DNA from: Bacteroidota bacterium
GTDB taxonomy: Bacteria; Bacteroidota; Bacteroidia; Cytophagales; Bernardetiaceae
Direction of reading: 5' to 3'
Assembly (NCBI GenBank): GCA_052033485.1
Contig: JBPOJO010000287.1
Coordinates: forward strand, 1-43,963
Length of the DNA: 43,963 bases
How positions within the stretch are numbered: position 1 is the first letter of the stretch; every line of letters begins with the position of its first letter. The position numbers and the translations under genes are program-made. Below the pieces are notes generated by a model. That model was not told the origin of the DNA. It was given only the letters and a program-made list of their open reading frames with translations, and did no database searches. Positions 1,456 through 18,027 of this stretch are shown here, in pieces.

Positions 1456-1728
1456 ATGATTAAATGCACGCTTTGCGATGTTTCATGCCACGATTCAAAA
1501 GACCTTTATTTACATAGAGGTTCAAACATTCATGAAACGCTCGTGGCACTTAAAAACCTTGAGGAAGCAAAAGAGAATTTAAAAATTGTTTTACAGTTAG
1601 AGTTTTTAAAGCTTTTGATTTCAGGAATAAAAGAACTTAAAAATGCAGTTCGGTTTTTTGTTCCTAAATTGCCAACAATTACAGCTTTTCTGCTGGCATT
1701 TTTTATTCTTTTAAGCATTTTAAAATGA
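1456..1728 (+). CDS. Classical C2H2 zinc-finger protein with a C-terminal transmembrane helix (90 aa)
   Basis: C-x2-C-x12-H-x5-H (CTLCDVSCHDSKDLYLHRGSNIH). The tail is hydrophobic (LPTITAFLLAFFILLSIL). Confidence 0.7.
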   Translation: MIKCTLCDVSCHDSKDLYLHRGSNIHETLVALKNLEEAKENLKIVLQLEFLKLLISGIKELKNAVRFFVPKLPTITAFLLAFFILLSILK

Positions 1729-2147
1729 AGAAAAACAAGAAAAATTCATATAAAATTTGCCCTGACTCATTGCAAAAAGGAATTTATCCGGGCATTTCAA
1801 TGAAGTGCAAATCAAGATACACAAACTCCGGTGGAATTCTAAAGAGAGGAATTGTTATTTCAGCTTTAACTCCTCAAGAGCAACAAATACTTAAAATTTG
1901 GCCCAAAAACGCCCCTTTTCCGCATGATTTGTTTGAAAACGGTTCAGTCTACGTTCCGTATATTCTAGGGGCTATAAACGCAAGTAATGAGGCCGGGCAA
2001 AATGAAGGTTTCCAAAAAGGAATCAATTTAACCGAAAAACAAGAGTTTTGGGGAATTATTGAAAAAGCTTATAAAACTTTGCGTGGGGTAGACTCAAACG
2101 GTTTTATCGCTTACTTAAAGGCTAGGCTTAAAGATTCTAATTTATAA
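1725..2147 (+). CDS. Hypothetical protein (140 aa)
   Basis: ORF track. ATGA overlap with the upstream gene. Confidence 0.7.
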   Translation: MKKNKKNSYKICPDSLQKGIYPGISMKCKSRYTNSGGILKRGIVISALTPQEQQILKIWPKNAPFPHDLFENGSVYVPYILGAINASNEAGQNEGFQKGINLTEKQEFWGIIEKAYKTLRGVDSNGFIAYLKARLKDSNL

Positions 2148-6085: not shown

Positions 6086-7039
6086 ATGAACATGGATAAA
6101 AACGACGATTCAAACGTCAAAAAAAATCACGATGATGACTTTCCGTTGGATGGTCCTCCAGCTCAAATGCCTATGGCTGATCACGCCACCGGAGAAATAA
6201 TTGATCCTCCTAAAAAACAGGAAGTCCAAAAAGTAGCAACTATACAGCCCGCGCAACAAACTGGGGGGCCACTTCAAACCTTTGCAAACGTTTTAAAGGG
6301 AAAACAAAACGCACTTAAAAACTTTTTGGGAAATGAAGATAATGCAATGAAATTCCAGTCAGCAGTAATTCAAGCCATAAATGGTAATTCTGCGCTATTA
6401 TCATGCAGCCCACAAAGTTTATTGGGGGCTTTTATGGAAATTGCTTCTCTCGGTCTTTATCCAGGAAACTACGCGGGTGACGCGTATGTTGTACCTTACG
6501 GAGGAAAAGCACAGTTTCAAATCGGATACAGAGGAGTAAAAACACTCGCTTATCGTTCTGGTGTGATTCGCATGGGCGCTGAGGTTGTTTATTCTAAGGA
6601 CCACTATGAGGAAGTTTTAGGAACTGATCCGTATATTAAACACATTAAGCCATCATTCGGCAAAGCACGCGGTGAACCGGTTGGTGCTTATGCGTGGGCT
6701 GAAGTTGCCAACGGAAAAGTAGTTTTCAAATCAATGTCAAAAGATGACATCATGAAGATAAAAAAGATGTCTAAAGCCTCAGGTTCTTCACATTCGCCAT
6801 GGAATTCAAACGACCCTATGCTCTGGATGTGGGCAAAAACAGCGTTTAAGCAGCTTGGCAAATTGCTTCCAACATCCAATGACCTCGATCGGGCGCTTTA
6901 TTTGGATAACGTTAGCGAACGCGGTGGCTATATTGAATCAGAGGGCAGTGTTATTGAAGTAGCTTTTGACGACAACGAAACAAAGATTGAAGGAATGAAA
7001 AGCAAAAAGCAAGAAATGAGAGGACGTAAAAGGAAATAG
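6086..7039 (+). CDS. recT: RecT-family single-strand annealing recombinase (317 aa)
   Basis: CSPQSLLGAFMEIASLGLYPG...AYVVPYGGKAQFQIGYRG...WAKTAFKQLGKLLP are typical RecT blocks. Confidence 0.9.
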   Translation: MNMDKNDDSNVKKNHDDDFPLDGPPAQMPMADHATGEIIDPPKKQEVQKVATIQPAQQTGGPLQTFANVLKGKQNALKNFLGNEDNAMKFQSAVIQAINGNSALLSCSPQSLLGAFMEIASLGLYPGNYAGDAYVVPYGGKAQFQIGYRGVKTLAYRSGVIRMGAEVVYSKDHYEEVLGTDPYIKHIKPSFGKARGEPVGAYAWAEVANGKVVFKSMSKDDIMKIKKMSKASGSSHSPWNSNDPMLWMWAKTAFKQLGKLLPTSNDLDRALYLDNVSERGGYIESEGSVIEVAFDDNETKIEGMKSKKQEMRGRKRK

Positions 7040-7103: not shown

Positions 7104-9206
7104 ATGAATAAATACGAAAAACTTACAACTGAAGAAAAGCAAGAACACCTCTCTAATTTTTTAATTCCGCACTGGTCAGTTAGCGCGGTTTCATCTTTCA
7201 TAAACAATGAAAAGGGGTTTGAGAAACAATATATTTTTAAACAATATTCAAAGACAAGCAGCTTGCCATCGATTATCGGTGATGTTTACCATAAAGCTTT
7301 AATGCAATTTTGGCTTTATTATAAAGAATGCGGAATGAAAATGAGCTTTGATGCATTCGCAGAAATTGCACTCGCTGAACTTAACATGGTCGGTGCAAAT
7401 AAATACCGTTCGTATAAAGGTGTTACGCTTGCTGAAACAAAGCTCGATGCATTAAAGGCCGTGAACTCTTTGATCAAAAACTTTATTGCAGAATGTGATG
7501 TTTATTTTAACGAAATTCAGGAAATTATCGGAGTTGAAAATACAATTATTGAATTTATTCAAATAAATGAAATTGATATTCCGCTTCCAATTAAATGCAA
7601 AGCGGACCTGATTTTTATCGATAAAGATGGCTCTTTAGGAATACTTGACCACAAATCAAAAAAGGATTTTACAAAAACAGAAGATATAAACCTAAAATAT
7701 GGGAATCAAACGGTGGGGCTTATTCTTGCAATAAATGAATGGATAAAAAATCAAAAAGAGGTACTTAAAAAATATCCTAAAGCAATCGAGGGTGTTAAAA
7801 AGTTCTTTTATTATGAAAATAAGATCAGCAAAAACAAGGATGGCAGCCGACAAATTCGGCAAATTCCTATTGATATAAAACAAAGTCAACAACTCTTTGA
7901 GCAAATATTATTTGAGGGGGTGTGGCGTGTTATGGAAGCCGTGCAAAACCCTGATTATGTTTATTTAATGAATCCGAATGACCATTTTGAAGACTCTGAG
8001 GAGATTGTAGAATTTTGGGTAAAAACGCACATTGAAGGTTTAGAAGGTTTCCCGGATTTGGAACCACACCAGGTGAAATTATTAAAAAAGAAACGTTCTG
8101 CTATCCGTCAGGCTTCACTTGTAGGGATACCCAAAAACGTTATAAAAGCTTTCAGCAATCCAAAGGAATTTATTTCATTATCTACTGCACACATGGAAAA
8201 TTTGACTCCATCGCAGCGTATCGAACACCGCTTGGCTACTTTCAATTATCCGGTAAAAGTAGGAAAAGTGATTGAAGGATACTCCTGTGATACATATCTC
8301 ATTGAGGTTAATGCGGGCCTTAAAATTTCGAATATTTATCAATACCGAATGGACATTGCGAATGCGCTCGGGGTTGAGGATGTAAGAATTGCATCAAATT
8401 TGGTTAAATATGAGGGTTTTACCTATGTTGCGATTGAGGCAAATCGCGAAAAAGCAACGGCGCTTTATCTTTCGCAAGGAGACATCCCTGCAGGCTATAA
8501 ATTCCCTATCGGACGTGATAACTTTGGAAATACGATGTGCTGGGATATTGAGAATCCATCCACGGCCCACATGATGATCGCCGGTGCGACCGGGAGCGGG
8601 AAATCGGTGGCAATTCGGAATGTGATTGAAACTGCGTTAAAAAAGAACGTGCGCGTTTCAATTCTTGACCCTAAAAATGAGTTTAAGCAGTATCAGAATA
8701 AAAACGTTGAAGTTATTTCCGAACTTCAAGAGATTGAAGACTTTATGGAAATGACAGTAATGGAAATGGATGAGATTTTCAGGACAAATGGAGCTTATGG
8801 AAACGGTCAAAAGCGCCTTGTGGTATTTGATGAGGCTGCGGACTGTTTCGCGAGGCAATCAAAGCAAAGGGTAAACTTTACGGAAGGCCCCAGGGGTGGC
8901 ATGAAAAAAAATGTAGATGTTGAATTTAAAACGCTTGAACAAAATACTTTAATCTTAGCTCAAAAGGCACGTTCTGCAGGAATCCATTTAATTCTAGCGG
9001 CTCAAAGGTTTTCGGTTAAAGTTTTATCCGGCGATGCGAAAGCAAACTTTACAACTCGTGTTTGCTTGAAAGTAATGAGCGGTGTTGACTCCAAGGTTAT
9101 GCTCGATCAGGAAGGAGCAGAAAAATTGAGAGGTAAAGGTGATGGTTTATTGATTTCTCCTGACCATTCAGAACCGGTCAGGCTTCAATGTTTTATGAGC
9201 GTTTAA
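7104..9206 (+). CDS. Fusion protein (700 aa): N-terminal PD-(D/E)xK (RecB/Cas4-like) nuclease and C-terminal FtsK/SpoIIIE-type DNA translocase ATPase
   Basis: The N-terminal part has GDVYHKAL, KADLIFIDKDGSLGILDHKSKK (D..D/ExK). The C-terminal part has Walker A AGATGSGKS, Walker B LVVFDEAAD, and AQKARSAGIHLILAAQRFSVKVLSGDAKANFTTRVCLKV..DSKVMLDQEGAEKLRGKGDGLL. Confidence 0.85.
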   Translation: MNKYEKLTTEEKQEHLSNFLIPHWSVSAVSSFINNEKGFEKQYIFKQYSKTSSLPSIIGDVYHKALMQFWLYYKECGMKMSFDAFAEIALAELNMVGANKYRSYKGVTLAETKLDALKAVNSLIKNFIAECDVYFNEIQEIIGVENTIIEFIQINEIDIPLPIKCKADLIFIDKDGSLGILDHKSKKDFTKTEDINLKYGNQTVGLILAINEWIKNQKEVLKKYPKAIEGVKKFFYYENKISKNKDGSRQIRQIPIDIKQSQQLFEQILFEGVWRVMEAVQNPDYVYLMNPNDHFEDSEEIVEFWVKTHIEGLEGFPDLEPHQVKLLKKKRSAIRQASLVGIPKNVIKAFSNPKEFISLSTAHMENLTPSQRIEHRLATFNYPVKVGKVIEGYSCDTYLIEVNAGLKISNIYQYRMDIANALGVEDVRIASNLVKYEGFTYVAIEANREKATALYLSQGDIPAGYKFPIGRDNFGNTMCWDIENPSTAHMMIAGATGSGKSVAIRNVIETALKKNVRVSILDPKNEFKQYQNKNVEVISELQEIEDFMEMTVMEMDEIFRTNGAYGNGQKRLVVFDEAADCFARQSKQRVNFTEGPRGGMKKNVDVEFKTLEQNTLILAQKARSAGIHLILAAQRFSVKVLSGDAKANFTTRVCLKVMSGVDSKVMLDQEGAEKLRGKGDGLLISPDHSEPVRLQCFMSV

Positions 9207-9225
9207 ATTTTACTTAAAATGTTAT

Positions 9226-9239
9226 TTGCTGGCCAGCAA
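9226..9239. promoter_or_regulatory. 14-bp perfect palindrome TTGCTGGCCAGCAA downstream of the nuclease-FtsK gene
   Basis: Read by eye. It could be a protein-binding site or a weak terminator stem. Confidence 0.3.
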
Positions 9240-9278
9240 TAAACAGAAAACTTATTTTTTTAGCCGAAAGGCAAATAT

Positions 9279-9563
9279 ATGAAAAATCAAAAAAACTCAA
9301 AAATCGGTATGTTCTTTTTGGGCGCTATGCTCTTGGCAACTTTATCAGGATGCACAACGGAAAGCCCTGATGCAAAGTTAGAAAAATCCACAAAGGATTT
9401 AAAGAAAACTCTGAATCAAAACTTAGGTGGTACCAGCACAAACAAGAACTTTCAAGATGCCCTCGATGCAACCCAAAAAGCACAGAAACAGGAAATGGAA
9501 AAGCAAAAGGCTATGTTGAAAGATTTGAGCAAACCAACTGACAACATTAACATATTGTACTAG
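9279..9563 (+). CDS. Lipoprotein (94 aa)
   Basis: Signal peptide with a lipobox (LLATLSGC) followed by a hydrophilic mature part. Confidence 0.75.
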   Translation: MKNQKNSKIGMFFLGAMLLATLSGCTTESPDAKLEKSTKDLKKTLNQNLGGTSTNKNFQDALDATQKAQKQEMEKQKAMLKDLSKPTDNINILY

Positions 9564-9574
9564 CCAAAAATCCG

Positions 9575-9605
9575 GTGGGGATTGAAAAAGATTTTTGATC
9601 CCCAC
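9575..9605 (+). terminator. Hairpin after the lipoprotein gene (gtggggat...atccccac, with inner A5/T5 pairing)
   Basis: 8-bp outer stem plus inner AAAAA/TTTTT pairing, read by eye. Confidence 0.5.
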
Positions 9606-9628
9606 TGATATAAAATTTGATCTTTAAA

Positions 9629-9795
9629 AGCAGGAAACACTTTGAATACCCACCCCTTATGGACATGCGCAGGGCGTAAAGGATATACGGCGGCTCGGAT
9701 TATAGCCCTAACTGCACGGTATACCGTGATCTACCGTCACCATCCGGGAGAGTAATCTCAATCAGAGGTAGACGCATGTACAGCTGTTTCCTGCT
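9629..9795 (+). ncRNA. Candidate structured RNA of about 167 nt (class unknown), with six mutually nested helices including a GNRA-capped hairpin
   Basis: No ORF. Locally G+C-rich (34/60 in line 9661-9720). Helices: P1 9629-39/9785-95, P2 9663-69/9773-79, P3 9671-75/9705-09, P4 9715-19/9724-28, P5 9730-35/9767-72, P6 9748-51/9756-59 closing a GUAA loop. Confidence 0.45.
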
Positions 9796-9845
9796 CCGTA
9801 GATCAAATCAGTAAAACTTTACTACTACTTTTTTACTACTAAAAT

Positions 9846-10223
9846 ATGCCAAATTTACAACAAAAACCGATTATTAAAAGCCTTATCGGGATCGACATTG
9901 AGGAATATATCGAAAAATTGAAAGTTTGGCTTATTGAAAATCAATGTACATACTTTTCAGATCCGGAATATCACGCAGTTAGTTACTATGATTTTTCTGG
10001 AAATAAAACAATACAACTTGCAAAAAGGAACCTGTGTATGCCTGACGAATTAATGTTGATTGATAGAGGCGATAAAAACAACGTACATACGTACACAATT
10101 TGCTCAATAAACAAAAATAATAAATGCAAAGACCATTATTATGTTTTACCAATATCACAACTGAGTGGGGAGCATTGGAGAAACGGCTATTTCTTACTTC
10201 CTAACTTGCAACAATATGCATGA
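9846..10223 (+). CDS. Hypothetical protein (125 aa)
   Basis: ORF track. Confidence 0.65.
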   Translation: MPNLQQKPIIKSLIGIDIEEYIEKLKVWLIENQCTYFSDPEYHAVSYYDFSGNKTIQLAKRNLCMPDELMLIDRGDKNNVHTYTICSINKNNKCKDHYYVLPISQLSGEHWRNGYFLLPNLQQYA

Positions 10224-10967: not shown

Positions 10968-11081
10968 ATGACAAAGATATTAACAAATATCAGGCAAACA
11001 GCTGGAGTTCTCCGTTTTCAGCGTCATGGCGTTGTTAAATCACCGGATAACTCCGGCTTTTTGCTTGATACTTATGTCTAA
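10968..11081 (+). CDS. Possible 37-aa leader ORF overlapping the start of the replication gene
   Basis: Hand translation: MTKILTNIRQTAGVLRFQRHGVVKSPDNSGFLLDTYV. Its stop at 11079-11081 overlaps the ATG at 11074. Confidence 0.3.
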   Translation: MTKILTNIRQTAGVLRFQRHGVVKSPDNSGFLLDTYV

Positions 11082-11883
11082 ACAAAGACTGATAAAAACA
11101 TCATTTTGGGACGAGGATGAATGGGTACAAACCCTAAATTCTAACGAAACATTGCTTTATTTGTATCTTTTAACAGGACCGAAAACCTCGCTTTGTGGCA
11201 TTTTTAAGGTACTTATAAGCCACGTAAAACTTGCAACAAAACTTACGAGCGAACAAATAGAAAGTGCCCTTAAAAGATTTGAAAAAGAAGGAAAAATAAT
11301 TGTAAAAGATCATTGGATTATTCTGTTAAACAGATCAAAACACCAAAATCCATCACCTAAAATTTCGCGAGGCATTGAAAGGGAACTGCTTGAAATCCCG
11401 CATGAAGTAACGAAACTCATGTACCCTATCGATACTGTATCGATACAAAACGGCACCCCTAAGGTAAAGGTTAAGGTAGAGTCTAAGTCTAAGGTAAAGG
11501 TTAATAATATTAAAAAGGTGTTTGATCAACAATCTGATGAGTGGAAACTTTCGGACCTCCTTTTTAATTTAATTATAAAAAACAATCCATACCACAAGTT
11601 TAAAGATTATTCCGAACCTGAGAGGGAACTACAAAAGCAATCGTTTTCAACCGTGGCTGATTTAATGTTCCGTGTGGATAAAAGAGATGTGAAATTTAGT
11701 GAATTTTTGGTTGAGTGGTGCCAAAATAGCGATTTTTGGAGGGCAATTATTCTTTCAATGAATAATTTTAGGGATAAGTACGATCAACTGGCAGCACAAG
11801 CCAAAAGAGCGTATGAAGAGGAGAAAAAAGAAAAGAAACCTAAGTATTTATTTCCTGTAGAAGTTAACCAAACACAACCATGA
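11074..11883 (+). CDS. Replisome-organizer / replication-initiator-like protein (269 aa from MSKQRLIKTSFWDEDEW). It contains an internal iteron array.
   Basis: The N-terminal FWDEDEW...LLYLYLLTGPKTSLCGIF...LKRFEKEGKIIV pattern resembles DnaD/DUF4373-type phage replication proteins. The DNA repeats at 11422..11510 encode PKVKVKVESKSKVKV. An alternative start exists at 11026. Confidence 0.65.
   Translation: MSKQRLIKTSFWDEDEWVQTLNSNETLLYLYLLTGPKTSLCGIFKVLISHVKLATKLTSEQIESALKRFEKEGKIIVKDHWIILLNRSKHQNPSPKISRGIERELLEIPHEVTKLMYPIDTVSIQNGTPKVKVKVESKSKVKVNNIKKVFDQQSDEWKLSDLLFNLIIKNNPYHKFKDYSEPERELQKQSFSTVADLMFRVDKRDVKFSEFLVEWCQNSDFWRAIILSMNNFRDKYDQLAAQAKRAYEEEKKEKKPKYLFPVEVNQTQP
11422..11510. repeat. 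Iteron locus A: 2 x TATCGATAC at 11-bp phasing, AAAACGGCA, then an (AAGGTW)n hexamer tract. Candidate origin.
   Basis: TATCGATAC at 11427-35 and 11438-46, AAAACGGCA at 11447-55, hexamer tract at 11461-11503. A diverged copy lies at 23450..23555. Confidence 0.6.
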
Positions 11884-14253: not shown

Positions 14254-14493
14254 ATGACTCATTACTTAAAAATTCAAATGCGGTGGTTAGCAGCCAGGGA
14301 AGCTCATCAAAAATTCTATGAATTGAGAATAAATGATCGTGATTTTCAAAGAGGAGACAGTATTATTTTTACGTTGGAAGGAAGTGACCAGACTTTGAAA
14401 GAAAAATACGAAATAACCCACGTTTTAACATCGGACGTTTGCGAAGGTTTAAAGAAAGGGTATTGCATTTTATCACTTACAAAACTCATTTAA
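14254..14493 (+). CDS. DUF3850 / ASCH-like (PUA-fold) protein (79 aa)
   Basis: HYLKIQ..W..AREAHQKFYELRINDRDFQRGDSIIF fits the recalled DUF3850 signature. Confidence 0.65.
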   Translation: MTHYLKIQMRWLAAREAHQKFYELRINDRDFQRGDSIIFTLEGSDQTLKEKYEITHVLTSDVCEGLKKGYCILSLTKLI

Positions 14494-14512
14494 TTTTTTA
14501 ATTTTTATTTTT

Positions 14513-15445
14513 ATGACAAAACAAGAAAAAATCGAAATGCTCATAGAACGTTTAATTTCAATGGCAATCCTTGGATGGAGAAAAGACATGTCTCCGACTG
14601 AAGTTATGGAACAAGCGCGTAAAAAAGCTGAAAATATTCATGATTTTTTTGAAAATTTCCCGGTTGCAAACAAAGATATTTGTCATGATGAAAGCCCTGA
14701 AAACCCAACTGAGTCACAAATGGTTCGGGATGATAGGCATTTTAAAAAAGGTTATGTTTATGGAAGGAGAGAGGGCTATACGGAAGCTCTTAAAAGGAAT
14801 CATGAGAAAAATCCAAACACTGCAGCTGTTTGCGATACTGATGAGGAGCAAAATAAATCACAAGAACCCGAAGTGATAAAGCTAAAATTTGATTCTAGTG
14901 AGCTTAATGACATGACCTCACTTATGGCTTTTGCTAACGGAACTGTTGCTAATATGAAGCGTAGTTTAGCTCAAATGGATAATAAAATTGAAGAAATTGG
15001 AAAGATAGATGATCAGTATAAAGAGGTTGTTTCTGAAAGATTTTTTTCAGCTTCACAGAGGATTGATAATTTAACAGAGGTTTTGCGTGATTTACAGCAA
15101 CACTTTGATAAATGTGTACATGAAATAAATTTTAAGATTAAATCTAATTTTGAAATTCAACAAAGCGATTGTAGGGTTACTGTTGAGCGAATACAGGAAT
15201 GCAAAAAAAATATTGAAGAAAAAGCTGAACGAGACAATTTGCAGAAAAATGATCCTTTTTCAAGCGATTATTTCAAGAAATTTAAGGCTGATCTTGAAAA
15301 GGGTTTGAAAGTTTTCGATGGTCGATTTATTCAATTGAGGGCATTAGTTATTGATAATACTAATAAAATTTCCGAACTTGAAGTAAAAATGAAAGGCAAG
15401 CCATCGAGGAAAAGCATCAGGAAAATGTTAGAAAAAAGCAAATAA
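14513..15445 (+). CDS. Hypothetical coiled-coil protein (310 aa)
   Basis: ORF track. The C-terminal half is heptad-like and charged. Confidence 0.75.
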   Translation: MTKQEKIEMLIERLISMAILGWRKDMSPTEVMEQARKKAENIHDFFENFPVANKDICHDESPENPTESQMVRDDRHFKKGYVYGRREGYTEALKRNHEKNPNTAAVCDTDEEQNKSQEPEVIKLKFDSSELNDMTSLMAFANGTVANMKRSLAQMDNKIEEIGKIDDQYKEVVSERFFSASQRIDNLTEVLRDLQQHFDKCVHEINFKIKSNFEIQQSDCRVTVERIQECKKNIEEKAERDNLQKNDPFSSDYFKKFKADLEKGLKVFDGRFIQLRALVIDNTNKISELEVKMKGKPSRKSIRKMLEKSK

Positions 15446-15484
15446 TTTAAATACAAAATAGTTTTTATTTCTTATCTTTTTTAC

Positions 15485-15613
15485 ATGTTGGAATCATTGT
15501 TTCTATGGTTACTTGGGCCAAGTTTGGTTATACCCGGATTTTTTATAATTTCTGCGGTATTCATTTTAGGTGGGATTTGCATTCTAGATTATTTTTTTTT
15601 AGACCCAAGCTAG
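15485..15613 (+). CDS. Possible small membrane peptide (42 aa)
   Basis: Hand translation: MLESLFLWLLGPSLVIPGFFIISAVFILGGICILDYFFLDPS. Confidence 0.35.
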   Translation: MLESLFLWLLGPSLVIPGFFIISAVFILGGICILDYFFLDPS

Positions 15614-17035: not shown

Positions 17036-17578
17036 ATGGAGCAAAATCAATCAGAAAAGATTTACGAAGCCGCAATTCAATTTAAAAAAGCCATTGAAAA
17101 AACAGGGCAAAAACCAACTCAATTTATTTCCTCAACCTCAATTTGCATGAGAATCTTTTATTTATTTCGTAAAGAAGATGAAACCGGCGTTTCGGGAACT
17201 GGTTTTGTTGCTGAAGGAGTTGTTTTTTCAACTGGGAAAATTGTTATGAATTGGCTGTCAAAGCTTACGTCTACATGTATTTATGAATCGATAGATGACA
17301 TTGTAAAGATTCATGGCCATAACAAAAAGACCGAAATACTATGGGAACACGAAGATTATATCAATGAAAAAGGGGAGCCGATTGTTTCCGATGGCAACTG
17401 GTATTATACAAATCTCATAACTAAGAAATACATCGGCTGGCTTTCTAATCTTGAAGGTTTATTGAAAATATCAGAATTTTTAAAGCAAAAGTTTGATGCT
17501 GAAAATGAAAAGAAAGCTTTGGATGAAATGGAAAAAGCAAAAAATGACCCCTTATATTTCTTAAAACACAATAAATAA
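17036..17578 (+). CDS. Hypothetical protein (180 aa)
   Basis: ORF track. Confidence 0.7.
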   Translation: MEQNQSEKIYEAAIQFKKAIEKTGQKPTQFISSTSICMRIFYLFRKEDETGVSGTGFVAEGVVFSTGKIVMNWLSKLTSTCIYESIDDIVKIHGHNKKTEILWEHEDYINEKGEPIVSDGNWYYTNLITKKYIGWLSNLEGLLKISEFLKQKFDAENEKKALDEMEKAKNDPLYFLKHNK

Positions 17579-18027
17579 TGCAAGTACTACCAACGCAATG
17601 TAAAAGGCCATCGAGGTCAGTAAAAATAACCGACATGGATCGAGTAGAAAAAGAAGCAAAAGAAATGATAGAACTTTCCAGAATGGCGCTGGGACGTTAC
17701 CCAAGAGCCTTGGCATTGGCTCATTGCCAAGTTGATCACGCTGACCCTTTGCGTTTTTTTGTTTTTAATAATGGACGGATTATTATAAATCCGCAAATCG
17801 ATGATTTCATGAAAGAAGAGGGTTTTGTGCGTGATACTGAGGGTTGTTTTTCGTACCCATTCAGGCCTGAGGTTTCGATTAAACGCTATAAAACTTTGAA
17901 GGTTTCTTATCAAGAAGTAAAAAAACGTGGTGGCGTTAAAAACAAGGTTGAAGTTGTGGACGGCATGCTTGCCCGCATTTTTCAACATGAATTAGATCAT
18001 TTTAATGGGAAAAGTATTTATGCTTAA
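17578..18027 (+). CDS. def: Peptide deformylase (149 aa; alternative start at 17635)
   Basis: Motif 2 EGCFS and motif 3 QHELDHFNG. Motif 1 is divergent (ALAHCQV). Confidence 0.8.
   Translation: MQVLPTQCKRPSRSVKITDMDRVEKEAKEMIELSRMALGRYPRALALAHCQVDHADPLRFFVFNNGRIIINPQIDDFMKEEGFVRDTEGCFSYPFRPEVSIKRYKTLKVSYQEVKKRGGVKNKVEVVDGMLARIFQHELDHFNGKSIYA

Follow-up and report, generated by a model that had tools for sequence, protein, structure and literature searches.

A structured cassette of a tailed phage, very probably encoding an RNA, in a slot that holds a tRNA gene in sister phages

What does a tailed phage keep in the G+C-rich gap that separates a lipoprotein gene from the gene starting at 9846 in contig JBPOJO010000287.1? 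This contig, the whole 43,963-bp stretch of which is called the window below, is a tailed-phage genome in which every gene lies on the + strand, and a first-pass annotation made from its letters alone had picked out positions 9629-9795 as a candidate structured non-coding RNA of about 167 nucleotides (nt). The position of that segment between the lipoprotein gene and the open reading frame (ORF) at 9846 was borne out, as was its composition (34 of the 60 nt in 9661-9720 are G or C, and the G+C content is 0.51 over 9629-9795 vs. 0.386 for the entire window). Our analyses lead us to conclude that the element is very probably an RNA, a proposal that is now upheld by compensatory changes in two of its helices (P2 and H3), by a contig from an RNA library, and by its exact replacement with a transfer RNA (tRNA) gene in sister phages. 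We also consider it reasonably probable that 9609-9811 is a cassette for a small, stable, trans-acting RNA that is cut from the transcript of an early operon by way of its terminal stem, i.e., helices P0 and P1.

The fold of the element retains most of the helices that had first been marked by hand. P1, P2, P4, P5, and P6 with its GUAA loop are all found in both the minimum free energy (MFE) fold and the centroid of 9629-9795. The arms of P3 (9671-9675/9705-9709) are complementary, as had been said, but in the fold this helix is displaced by two local hairpins, Ha and H3, and enforcing it makes the fold less stable by 2.2 kcal/mol for the window sequence and by 7.2 kcal/mol for a variant from wastewater (X4; handles beginning with X denote sequencing runs). 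Because Ha and H3 are used in place of P3, the core is a four-arm junction closed by P2, and not the three-way junction that had been drawn. An inverted-repeat analysis added an outer helix that the earlier list had lacked, P0 (9615-9623/9800-9808), a perfect 9 bp, and P0 to P6 are nested in the fold of the whole unit. The parts of the slot, in order, are as follows.

9575-9605, + strand: hairpin (inverted repeat) after the lipoprotein gene, the left boundary of the slot; kept in X4, X5, X8, X10 and X12
9609-9811, + strand: allelic cassette; soil relatives have 83 nt with a tRNA gene of ~74 nt instead
9615-9623, + strand: P0 5′ arm, ATTTGATCT; pairs with 9800-9808 in the MFE fold and the centroid; invariant in the two sequences that cover it
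9629-9641, + strand: P1 5′ arm; 11 perfect pairs with 9785-9795 and two more with 9782-9783 across a 1-nt bulge; invariant
9640-9662, + strand: 23-nt 5′ internal loop, CUUUGAAUACCCACCCCUUAUGG; largely unpaired, invariant in all variants that cover it; a candidate recognition surface
9663-9669, + strand: P2 5′ arm; pairs with 9773-9779; two compensatory pairs
9673-9691, + strand: hairpin Ha; CGUA, a 7-nt loop AAGGAUA and UACG, with an outer G-C pair (9673-9678/9686-9691); invariant
9692-9707, + strand: hairpin H3; GGCU, an 8-nt loop and AGCC (9692-9695/9704-9707); competes with P3
9715-9728, + strand: hairpin P4, a variable arm; CACGG UAUA CCGUG; X4 and X11 have a different sequence, 1 nt longer
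9730-9772, + strand: P5/P6 arm; P5 is 9730-9735/9767-9772 plus 9737-9738/9765-9766, P6 is 9748-9751/9756-9759, and the GUAA loop is 9752-9755
9773-9779, + strand: P2 3′ arm; pairs with 9663-9669
9782-9795, + strand: P1 3′ arm, TGTTTCCTGCT, plus AG; pairs with the P1 5′ arm
9796-9799, + strand: 3′ side of the internal loop between P0 and P1; CCGU in the window, CCAU in X4; 9796 is the last position of the RNA-library contig
9800-9808, + strand: P0 3′ arm, AGATCAAAT; pairs with 9615-9623
9812-9845, + strand: AT-rich leader, the right boundary of the slot; direct repeat TTTACTACTA at 9818-9827 and 9832-9841

Compared with shuffled sequences, the folding energy is better than expected when P0 is included, the 167-nt core by itself being marginal. 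The whole unit (beginning at 9609-9611 and ending at 9811) reaches -63.4 kcal/mol and z = -4.03, with one of 200 shuffles as good, and independent shuffles of the same unit gave z from -3.5 to -4.0 with none of 200 as good. The X4 variant retains the overall architecture at nearly the same energy (-63.2 kcal/mol, z = -4.37, 0/200 shuffles). On the + strand the centroid lies near the MFE structure, whereas the centroid of the minus strand is 20 kcal/mol weaker than its MFE. In a coarse scan with 30 shuffles per interval, z values of -3.5 or below were obtained in about seven 200-nt intervals of the genome, and the folding energy is therefore strong but neither unique nor proof on its own. Tertiary contacts were considered by inspection and rejected: a GNRA receptor (UAUGG/CCUAAC) and pseudoknots with the 23-nt loop either clash with P2 and H3 or differ between variants. 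The description of the segment as free of ORFs was true in substance only, since mechanical frames of 37 amino acids (aa) (9642-9755, TTG start) and 39 aa (minus strand) do exist; the 37-aa frame, however, is interrupted in X4 by a stop and by a 1-nt insertion that shifts the frame, and it is therefore not a conserved coding sequence.

Evidence that these helices are maintained came from variants of the element, all of which derive from Logan assemblies of SRA runs whose contigs were laid on the window. The X4 contig covers 9563-9849 with 19 differences and one insertion; 9563-9662 is identical, all of the differences fall from 9663 onward, and 17 of them lie within 9663-9779. The contig of X11, the RNA library, covers 9642-9796 with 15 differences (14 listed) and one insertion, and that of X6 covers 9665-9849 with two differences. 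The changes cluster in P2, H3 and P4, next to a block (9728-9772) that is invariant in all four sequences, so that some 45 unchanged nt adjoin arms that differ by ~15%. Three double changes are compensatory, as one would look for in a structured RNA: in P2, the pair 9663/9779 goes from A-U to G-C in X4 and X11 and the pair 9669/9773 from G-C to A-U in X4 only, and in H3 the pair 9693/9706 goes from G-C to A-U in X4 and X11. Since X11 has the changes at 9663/9779 and 9693/9706 and lacks that at 9669/9773, at least two separate events are required. No one-sided break or uncompensated change was seen in P2 or H3. Across the window, X6, X11 and X4, 97.9% of the cells are paired vs. 30-41% when the partners are slid by one to three columns, and RNAalifold agrees. 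Across the three sequence types there was no helix-breaking change outside the P4 hairpin, which in X4 has been replaced altogether by a sequence that pairs with the preceding junction (CCUAACU/AGUUGGG, with one U-G pair). The loop of H3 also differs, being CGGAUUAU in the window and UGAAAAAU in X4 and X11. The known distribution of the element is narrow (wastewater, freshwater and one coded host-associated sample), and runs X14-X16, from the same samples or studies, yielded no further variants.

The nature of the slot became apparent from what fills it in other phages. In one contig of X8, a soil run, 9609-9811 is missing and 83 other letters stand between 9608 and 9812. X8 and X10 read CCCCACTGA up to 9608 and, after it, AAATAT and GCGAAGGTAGCGGAATGGTAACGC, which we read as the 5′ strand of an acceptor stem and a D arm, and X7 has TTGCAGGTTCAACTCCTGCCTTTCGCA CTA immediately before 9812 (TAAAAC), which we read as a T arm (GTTCAAC loop), the 3′ strand of the acceptor and the discriminator base. 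Between the two ends, GCGAAGG and CTTTCGC pair over 7 bp, one of them G-U, as an acceptor stem, and the arrangement implies a tRNA gene of ~74 nt with no encoded CCA, although this allele is read from its ends only (the 5′ end in X8 and X10, the 3′ end in X7, with 30 letters per loose end). The soil relatives are ~95-99% identical to the window in the structural genes. Contigs of X8 and of X4 align with 20-40 kb of it, for the most part at 95-99% identity, and by that likeness the X8, X4 and window phages are to be regarded as strains of one phage species that differ by cassette. The swapped unit, 9609-9811, nearly coincides with the fold bounded by P0 (9615-9808), and the tRNA allele begins 6 nt past the shared sequence. 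Given this exact replacement by a tRNA gene in sister phages, the view that the site is a slot for small-RNA genes is supported.

The flanks of the slot behave accordingly. The leader at 9812-9845 is kept in every allele, including before two different downstream genes, and is the right-hand recombination boundary of the cassette; it may also be a promoter or operator. The 125-aa gene that starts at 9846, together with this leader, is preceded by the tRNA gene in X7, X8 and X9, and the lipoprotein gene likewise accompanies the tRNA allele (X8, X10). In X4 and X6 the element and the leader precede a different gene (ATGACCATAAAATATGCCCC after 9849), and the element and the ~50 nt of leader down to the ATG are conserved together. 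A third allele, neither element nor tRNA, occurs in X12 (a coded 'organism B' run, depth 27.6; seen over 9534-9610), which has AAATTTAATGATTAAACGGGGGTGAGGGAA after 9610. Farther afield, relative L008 (81% identity in the FtsK-like protein encoded upstream of the slot) is without both the lipoprotein gene and the element; its FtsK-like gene is followed by a 165-nt spacer and then a homologue of the 125-aa gene that lacks a leader of this kind. Within the flanks retrieved for more distant relatives (60-71% identity), up to 5-10 kb to either side, neither the element nor a tRNA is present. To our knowledge, almost all of the small accessory phage cassettes studied so far encode proteins or tRNAs, and few orphan non-coding RNAs of phages come with a natural allelic comparison. 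Here a structured RNA unlike any described family would alternate with a tRNA gene at one locus of phages that are otherwise ~95-99% identical, and the resulting comparison (RNA vs. tRNA vs. other fillers) as a means to probe the role of such RNAs is, to us, the most interesting and most testable aspect of the locus. As an observation in its own right, the outer part of P1 (GCAGG...CCTGC; 9629-9634/9790-9794) is identical to the T-stem of the allelic X7 tRNA (GCAGG TTCAACT CCTGC), which may be a coincidence or a trace of recombination between cassettes.

That the element is transcribed is suggested by X11, a wastewater run whose library is described as 'METAGENOMIC RNA-Seq cDNA'. It contains a 157-nt contig with a word depth of 3.8 over 9642-9796, and this is the only genuine match in that run to window positions 1-40,000 (80-85% likeness), the remaining pieces being fragments of up to 58 nt from unrelated contigs. 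Random fragments of genomic DNA, or a long mRNA, should have extended further, and several reads stacked within 157 nt, or about one read length, are more readily explained by a discrete small RNA.

How might such a cassette work? The RNA would be made on the + strand, which carries all of the genes and is the only strand on which the GUAA loop reads as GNRA; in addition, the U-G pair of the X4 replacement helix at P4 would be a mismatch on the opposite strand. It would most likely arise by read-through of the hairpin 3′ of the lipoprotein gene, within a rightward early/replication operon. That hairpin had been called a terminator, and it is indeed present (9575-9588/9592-9605), but it has no T-run and a terminator scan of 9200-10000 was empty, so that it is probably not a full terminator. 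We infer read-through on these grounds and because the tRNA allele, with 6 nt to spare, has no room for a promoter of its own and would therefore need to be transcribed from upstream. The mature RNA would probably be ~155-170 nt long, roughly 9629-9798, and would be excised at its terminal duplex, the likely processing signal, where P0 (9 bp), a small internal loop, and P1 (11-13 bp) would make up an RNase III-type stem; alternatively, P1 followed by U-C-C-(A/G) could be processed in the manner of RNase P. The product would consist of a P1/P2 stalk with the invariant, asymmetric 23-nt loop, carrying Ha, H3, P4 and the GNRA-capped P5/P6 arm.

Such an RNA would act in trans, its invariant single-stranded and P5/P6 surfaces most likely binding a protein or another RNA, with H3 and P4 as fast-evolving arms; the contrast of an invariant P5/P6 and Ha with a quickly changing H3 and P4 points to constant surfaces for recognition alongside variable arms. 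When the invariant loop was compared with every start site of the window for antisense pairing, it did no better than shuffled loops, and since no antisense target was found in the phage itself, we favour the binding of a host or phage factor. Because nearly identical phages have a tRNA gene in this slot, the RNA would be accessory, exchangeable cargo for host takeover or counter-defence, and not a control element for its neighbours. Bacteroidota phages have seen little experimental RNA biology, and if the RNA did act on host tRNA biology or defence it would be an RNA-only counter-measure in these phages; the evidence warrants an experiment, not a functional claim.

A good deal weighs against the reading of the cassette as a gene for a trans-acting RNA, and it is best considered together. 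Exact and degenerate patterns built from the invariant blocks located the element in no IMG/VR, JGI metagenome or GTDB entry. A covariance model of the element (R1), run on the window and 15 fetched loci (all except L001-L003), detected it once in the window and in none of those loci, and no relative outside the cluster has the element. The comparison set comprises four sequences (window, X6, X11 and X4) of three types from one narrow phage cluster, and the variants were rebuilt from the difference tables of Logan contigs, not read directly. P0, P1, Ha, P5 and P6 are without any variation, and so are uninformative on pairing, and the conserved helices contain neither G-U pairs nor strand-specific changes. 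The core of 9629-9795 alone has z = -1.90, with 10 of 200 shuffles folding equally well, and the unit also folds well with DNA parameters (z = -5.78) and on the minus strand (z = -3.2). As for transcription, X11 is labelled 'RNA?', DNA is possibly present in it, and its contig is strandless; the contig starts at 9642, 13 nt inside the 5′ arm of P1, which, if it were the true 5′ end, would leave no P1. Three small metatranscriptomes of the study from which the window came contained three exact phage contigs, with the element absent from them. No sigma-70-type promoter or terminator flanks the element, and a scan for promoters of the Bacteroidota type (TTTG..TAnnTTTG) performed at chance level and gave no site upstream of it.

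Among the rivals, the one that survives best, though we hold it to be unlikely, is a DNA-level element, whose fold would form in single-stranded or cruciform DNA and serve in priming or as an origin for single-strand synthesis, mark a site of recombination, or represent the terminal inverted repeats of a small, non-autonomous mobile element that landed in the slot. The first-pass annotation had named a structured DNA site as its own alternative, and in our hands this alternative was weakened but not without merit. The swapped segment has perfect inverted repeats, P0 and P1, exactly at its two ends, the fold is good with DNA parameters and on the minus strand, no G-U pair fixes the strand in the conserved helices, and the element sits in a replication/recombination module, ~1.2 kb upstream of the gene for a DnaD-like replisome organiser. 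A mobile or recombining DNA element, however, accords poorly with boundaries (...ACTGA/TATAAA and CAG/TAAAAC) that lack a target-site duplication, with the occurrence of just one copy, that of the window, among the window and the 15 loci tested, and with a tRNA gene, not an empty site, in the sister phages. The compensatory changes fall in interior helices and none in the terminal repeats, and the RNA-derived contig does not extend beyond the element, X11 having no other DNA of the phage. The window ORFs that were scanned also yielded no transposase, integrase or reverse transcriptase; the search for the reverse transcriptase (RVT) domain covered 40 window ORFs, all of the neighbours included, against Pfam or PHROGs, with a few ORFs of the structural module outside the scan.

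Two particular classes of mobile or DNA-making element were also considered. A miniature inverted-repeat transposable element or other small mobile DNA was rejected on the same absence of a target-site duplication and of dispersed copies, its terminal inverted repeats notwithstanding. The element bears a resemblance, and only that, to the msr-msd of retrons in its size (~150-200 nt), its internal hairpins, and a perfect terminal inverted repeat comparable to a1/a2 (11 bp in P1 and 9 bp in P0); the retron was rejected, with no reverse transcriptase among the scanned ORFs, immediate neighbours included, and no match to a retron or RT-motif family in Rfam.

A bolder form of the RNA reading, which we think quite unlikely, is that the RNA is a stand-in for the tRNA gene, i.e., a decoy or mimic that engages a tRNA-acting host factor through P5/P6, the 23-nt loop and an acceptor-like P1-UCC(A) end. 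Candidate targets are a defence nuclease or modifier directed at tRNAs, RNase P, the CCA-adding enzyme, and an immune system that senses tRNAs. The element has something in common with tRNA and with acceptor mimics such as transfer-messenger RNA (tmRNA) and the Y-RNA-like YrlA: it occupies the place of a tRNA gene, and its 10-11-bp terminal stem followed by U-C-C-A (X4) or U-C-C-G (window) resembles the stack of acceptor and T arm with its NCCA tail. Unlike them, it has no cloverleaf, T-loop or tmRNA feature (ARAGORN, relaxed thresholds included) and no Yrl match in Rfam, and its CCA is not conserved. Were the decoy to prove real, tRNA and decoy would be alternative counter-measures at one locus, and H3 and P4 would track host variation.

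The remaining alternatives keep the RNA and deny it a role in trans. A cis-acting leader, in the form of a riboswitch-like sensor or attenuator in the 5′ untranslated region (UTR) of the gene starting at 9846, would explain why the element lies directly upstream of that gene, why its multi-arm junction has invariant unpaired nucleotides, as ligand-binding aptamers do, and why the element and the ~50-nt leader are conserved together in X4 and X6. The downstream gene, however, differs in X4 and X6, so that there is no constant association, and the same 125-aa gene with its leader follows a tRNA gene in X7, X8 and X9, while L008, the closest relative without the cassette, carries a homologous gene minus such a leader. 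Nothing obvious in the sequence could serve as an expression platform, terminators included, Rfam gives no riboswitch even at E up to 10, and the X11 contig stops at 9796, not reaching the gene; we find this explanation improbable. An equally poor candidate is a passive 3′-UTR or processing module that would protect or terminate the lipoprotein transcript, or insulate it from the downstream gene, and which, if that were all, would make the element an ordinary feature. The element does follow the lipoprotein gene, whose hairpin has no T-run, and both are jointly absent from L008. The lipoprotein gene is nonetheless also found with the tRNA allele (X8, X10), so that the two are not tied, and a stabiliser needs no ~45 invariant nt in P5/P6, no 23-nt invariant loop and no compensated interior pairs. 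Chance or decaying sequence, e.g., the remnant of a former gene, is very improbable indeed, for although the element is very narrowly distributed, z is only -1.9 for the 167-nt core by itself and several other 200-nt intervals of the genome score equally, there are three compensated pairs with no uncompensated helix change in P2/H3, z is about -4 with P0 in both variants, and 45 invariant nt adjoin arms that are ~15% diverged.

If the cassette does encode a trans-acting RNA, does that RNA belong to a known family? It had been said to match no known riboswitch or ribozyme class, and this stood: a cmscan of the window against 4227 Rfam families was empty at the gathering threshold, and when 9500-9900 was searched at E up to 10 it returned only noise (small nucleolar RNA, microRNA and U1). 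The c-di-GMP-I and ykkC riboswitches, to which a superficial likeness had been noted, were rejected, with no match to either covariance model in these searches. A tRNA was rejected on ARAGORN, which found no genes in the window, and on the absence of a match to RF00005 at E up to 10; with relaxed settings ARAGORN gave no tRNA other than one junk call on the minus strand (a 119-nt 'intron' at the 60% threshold). Likewise, no tmRNA was called by ARAGORN -m even at a 70% threshold, and none was found by Rfam. The BLASTN search of phage sequences that had been recommended, with 9400-10000 against 50,697 phage records in distant mode, gave no match. The pattern searches mentioned above recovered one unrelated locus three times (L001, L002 and L003), plus L004, a G+C-rich intergenic region (1482-1828, minus strand) of a marine metagenome contig that shares CCATCCGGGAGAG..CAATCAGAGG and CCACCCCTT with the element. 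L004 has a long-range stem of its own (GCCACCCCUU/AAGGGGUGGC) and its local structure differs from that of the element; it went undetected by R1 at E up to 10 and by Rfam, and its likeness is provisionally treated as chance. A search of IMG/VR and GTDB with the 3′ end of the tRNA allele also gave no match.

The closest parallels are ones of kind. Bacteriophage T4 makes two small stable RNAs, 'species 1' and 'species 2' (rnaC/rnaD), whose genes lie among its tRNA genes. Like the RNA proposed here, these are stable non-coding phage RNAs of ~120-170 nt at the position of a tRNA gene, presumably released from a longer precursor. They differ from it in lying within a tRNA cluster, whereas the element is allelic with a single tRNA gene in a phage whose host is most likely one of the Bacteroidota, with no tRNA in the window, and no relationship in sequence or structure is to be expected. 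A second parallel is with GOLLD and ROOL, structured non-coding RNAs of unknown function that are often in prophages and near tRNA genes, with ROOL averaging 581 nt (PMC5737381). They share multi-junction folds with the element and are far larger than its ~170-200 nt; membership in GOLLD, ROOL or the raiA ornate RNAs was rejected, with no Rfam match even at E up to 10 and too small a size. A third is with phage tRNAs used in counter-defence: the tRNA-Tyr of phage T5 is reported to counter a retron (bioRxiv 10.1101/2023.03.15.532788), so that a phage tRNA serves as counter-defence cargo. There, as here, an exchangeable small-RNA gene occupies an accessory slot, the link being one of position alone. 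We have filed the element as a new family, an orphan structured phage RNA in a tRNA-type slot that is loosely akin to the small RNAs of T4 and to GOLLD/ROOL.

The surroundings of the slot are those of the early region of a tailed phage, in which the following genes were recognised in addition to structural genes for the small and large terminase subunits, the portal and the major head protein.

6086-7039, + strand: RecT, early region
7104-9206, + strand: fusion of PD-(D/E)XK and FtsK/HerA domains, 700 aa, early region, directly after RecT
9279-9563, + strand: lipoprotein ORF, 94 aa, directly 5′ of the hairpin at 9575-9605
after the lipoprotein gene, + strand: in order, the element, small ORFs, and a helix-turn-helix protein
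from 9846, + strand: 125-aa gene, the next ORF after the element
11026-11883, + strand: DnaD-like replisome organiser, ~1.2 kb downstream of the element, with a ParB-methylase gene next

The lipoprotein had no homologues, and both it and the 125-aa protein were found only on the source contig. The FtsK-like protein had 135 homologues, a few of which carry source names, all of them from Bacteroidota (Paraflavitalea, Coprobacter, Puia and Bacteroidales), and since the named homologues come from there the host of the phage most likely belongs to that phylum. Through this protein eleven related loci were fetched (60-81% protein identity), in which neither the element nor a tRNA was found, and Rfam searches of six related loci gave nothing. 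One of these relatives, L014 (61%), has two gene-free stretches of ~1.1-1.2 kb (7316-8497 and 14374-15521), in which R1, ARAGORN and Rfam find nothing. The pairing of RecT with the FtsK-like gene recurs in all of the fetched related contigs that show the upstream gene (L006, L008-L017), and the fusion protein may be a nuclease partner of RecT joined to a DNA translocase.

Elsewhere in the genome, a peptide deformylase is encoded at 17578-18027 (Pfam PF01327, E = 3.4e-18), and one is also present in relative L012. A long imperfect hairpin at 10988-11070 overlaps the start of the DnaD-like gene and lies in the interval with the best z of the genome (10901-11100, z = -5.1); it is a candidate replication origin or regulatory site. 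Another structure lies at 620-740, where a 16-bp inverted repeat, AACAAAAACACCATGA/TTATGGTGTTTTTGTT, brackets the start codon and codons ~33-38 of an ORF at 632-784 that encodes 50 aa with a hydrophobic C-terminus, within an otherwise ORF-poor first 1.4 kb (interval 601-800, z = -4.6). This structure may either control translation or be a second small RNA, and the 8-mer UGAAUACC is common to this region and to the invariant loop of the element.

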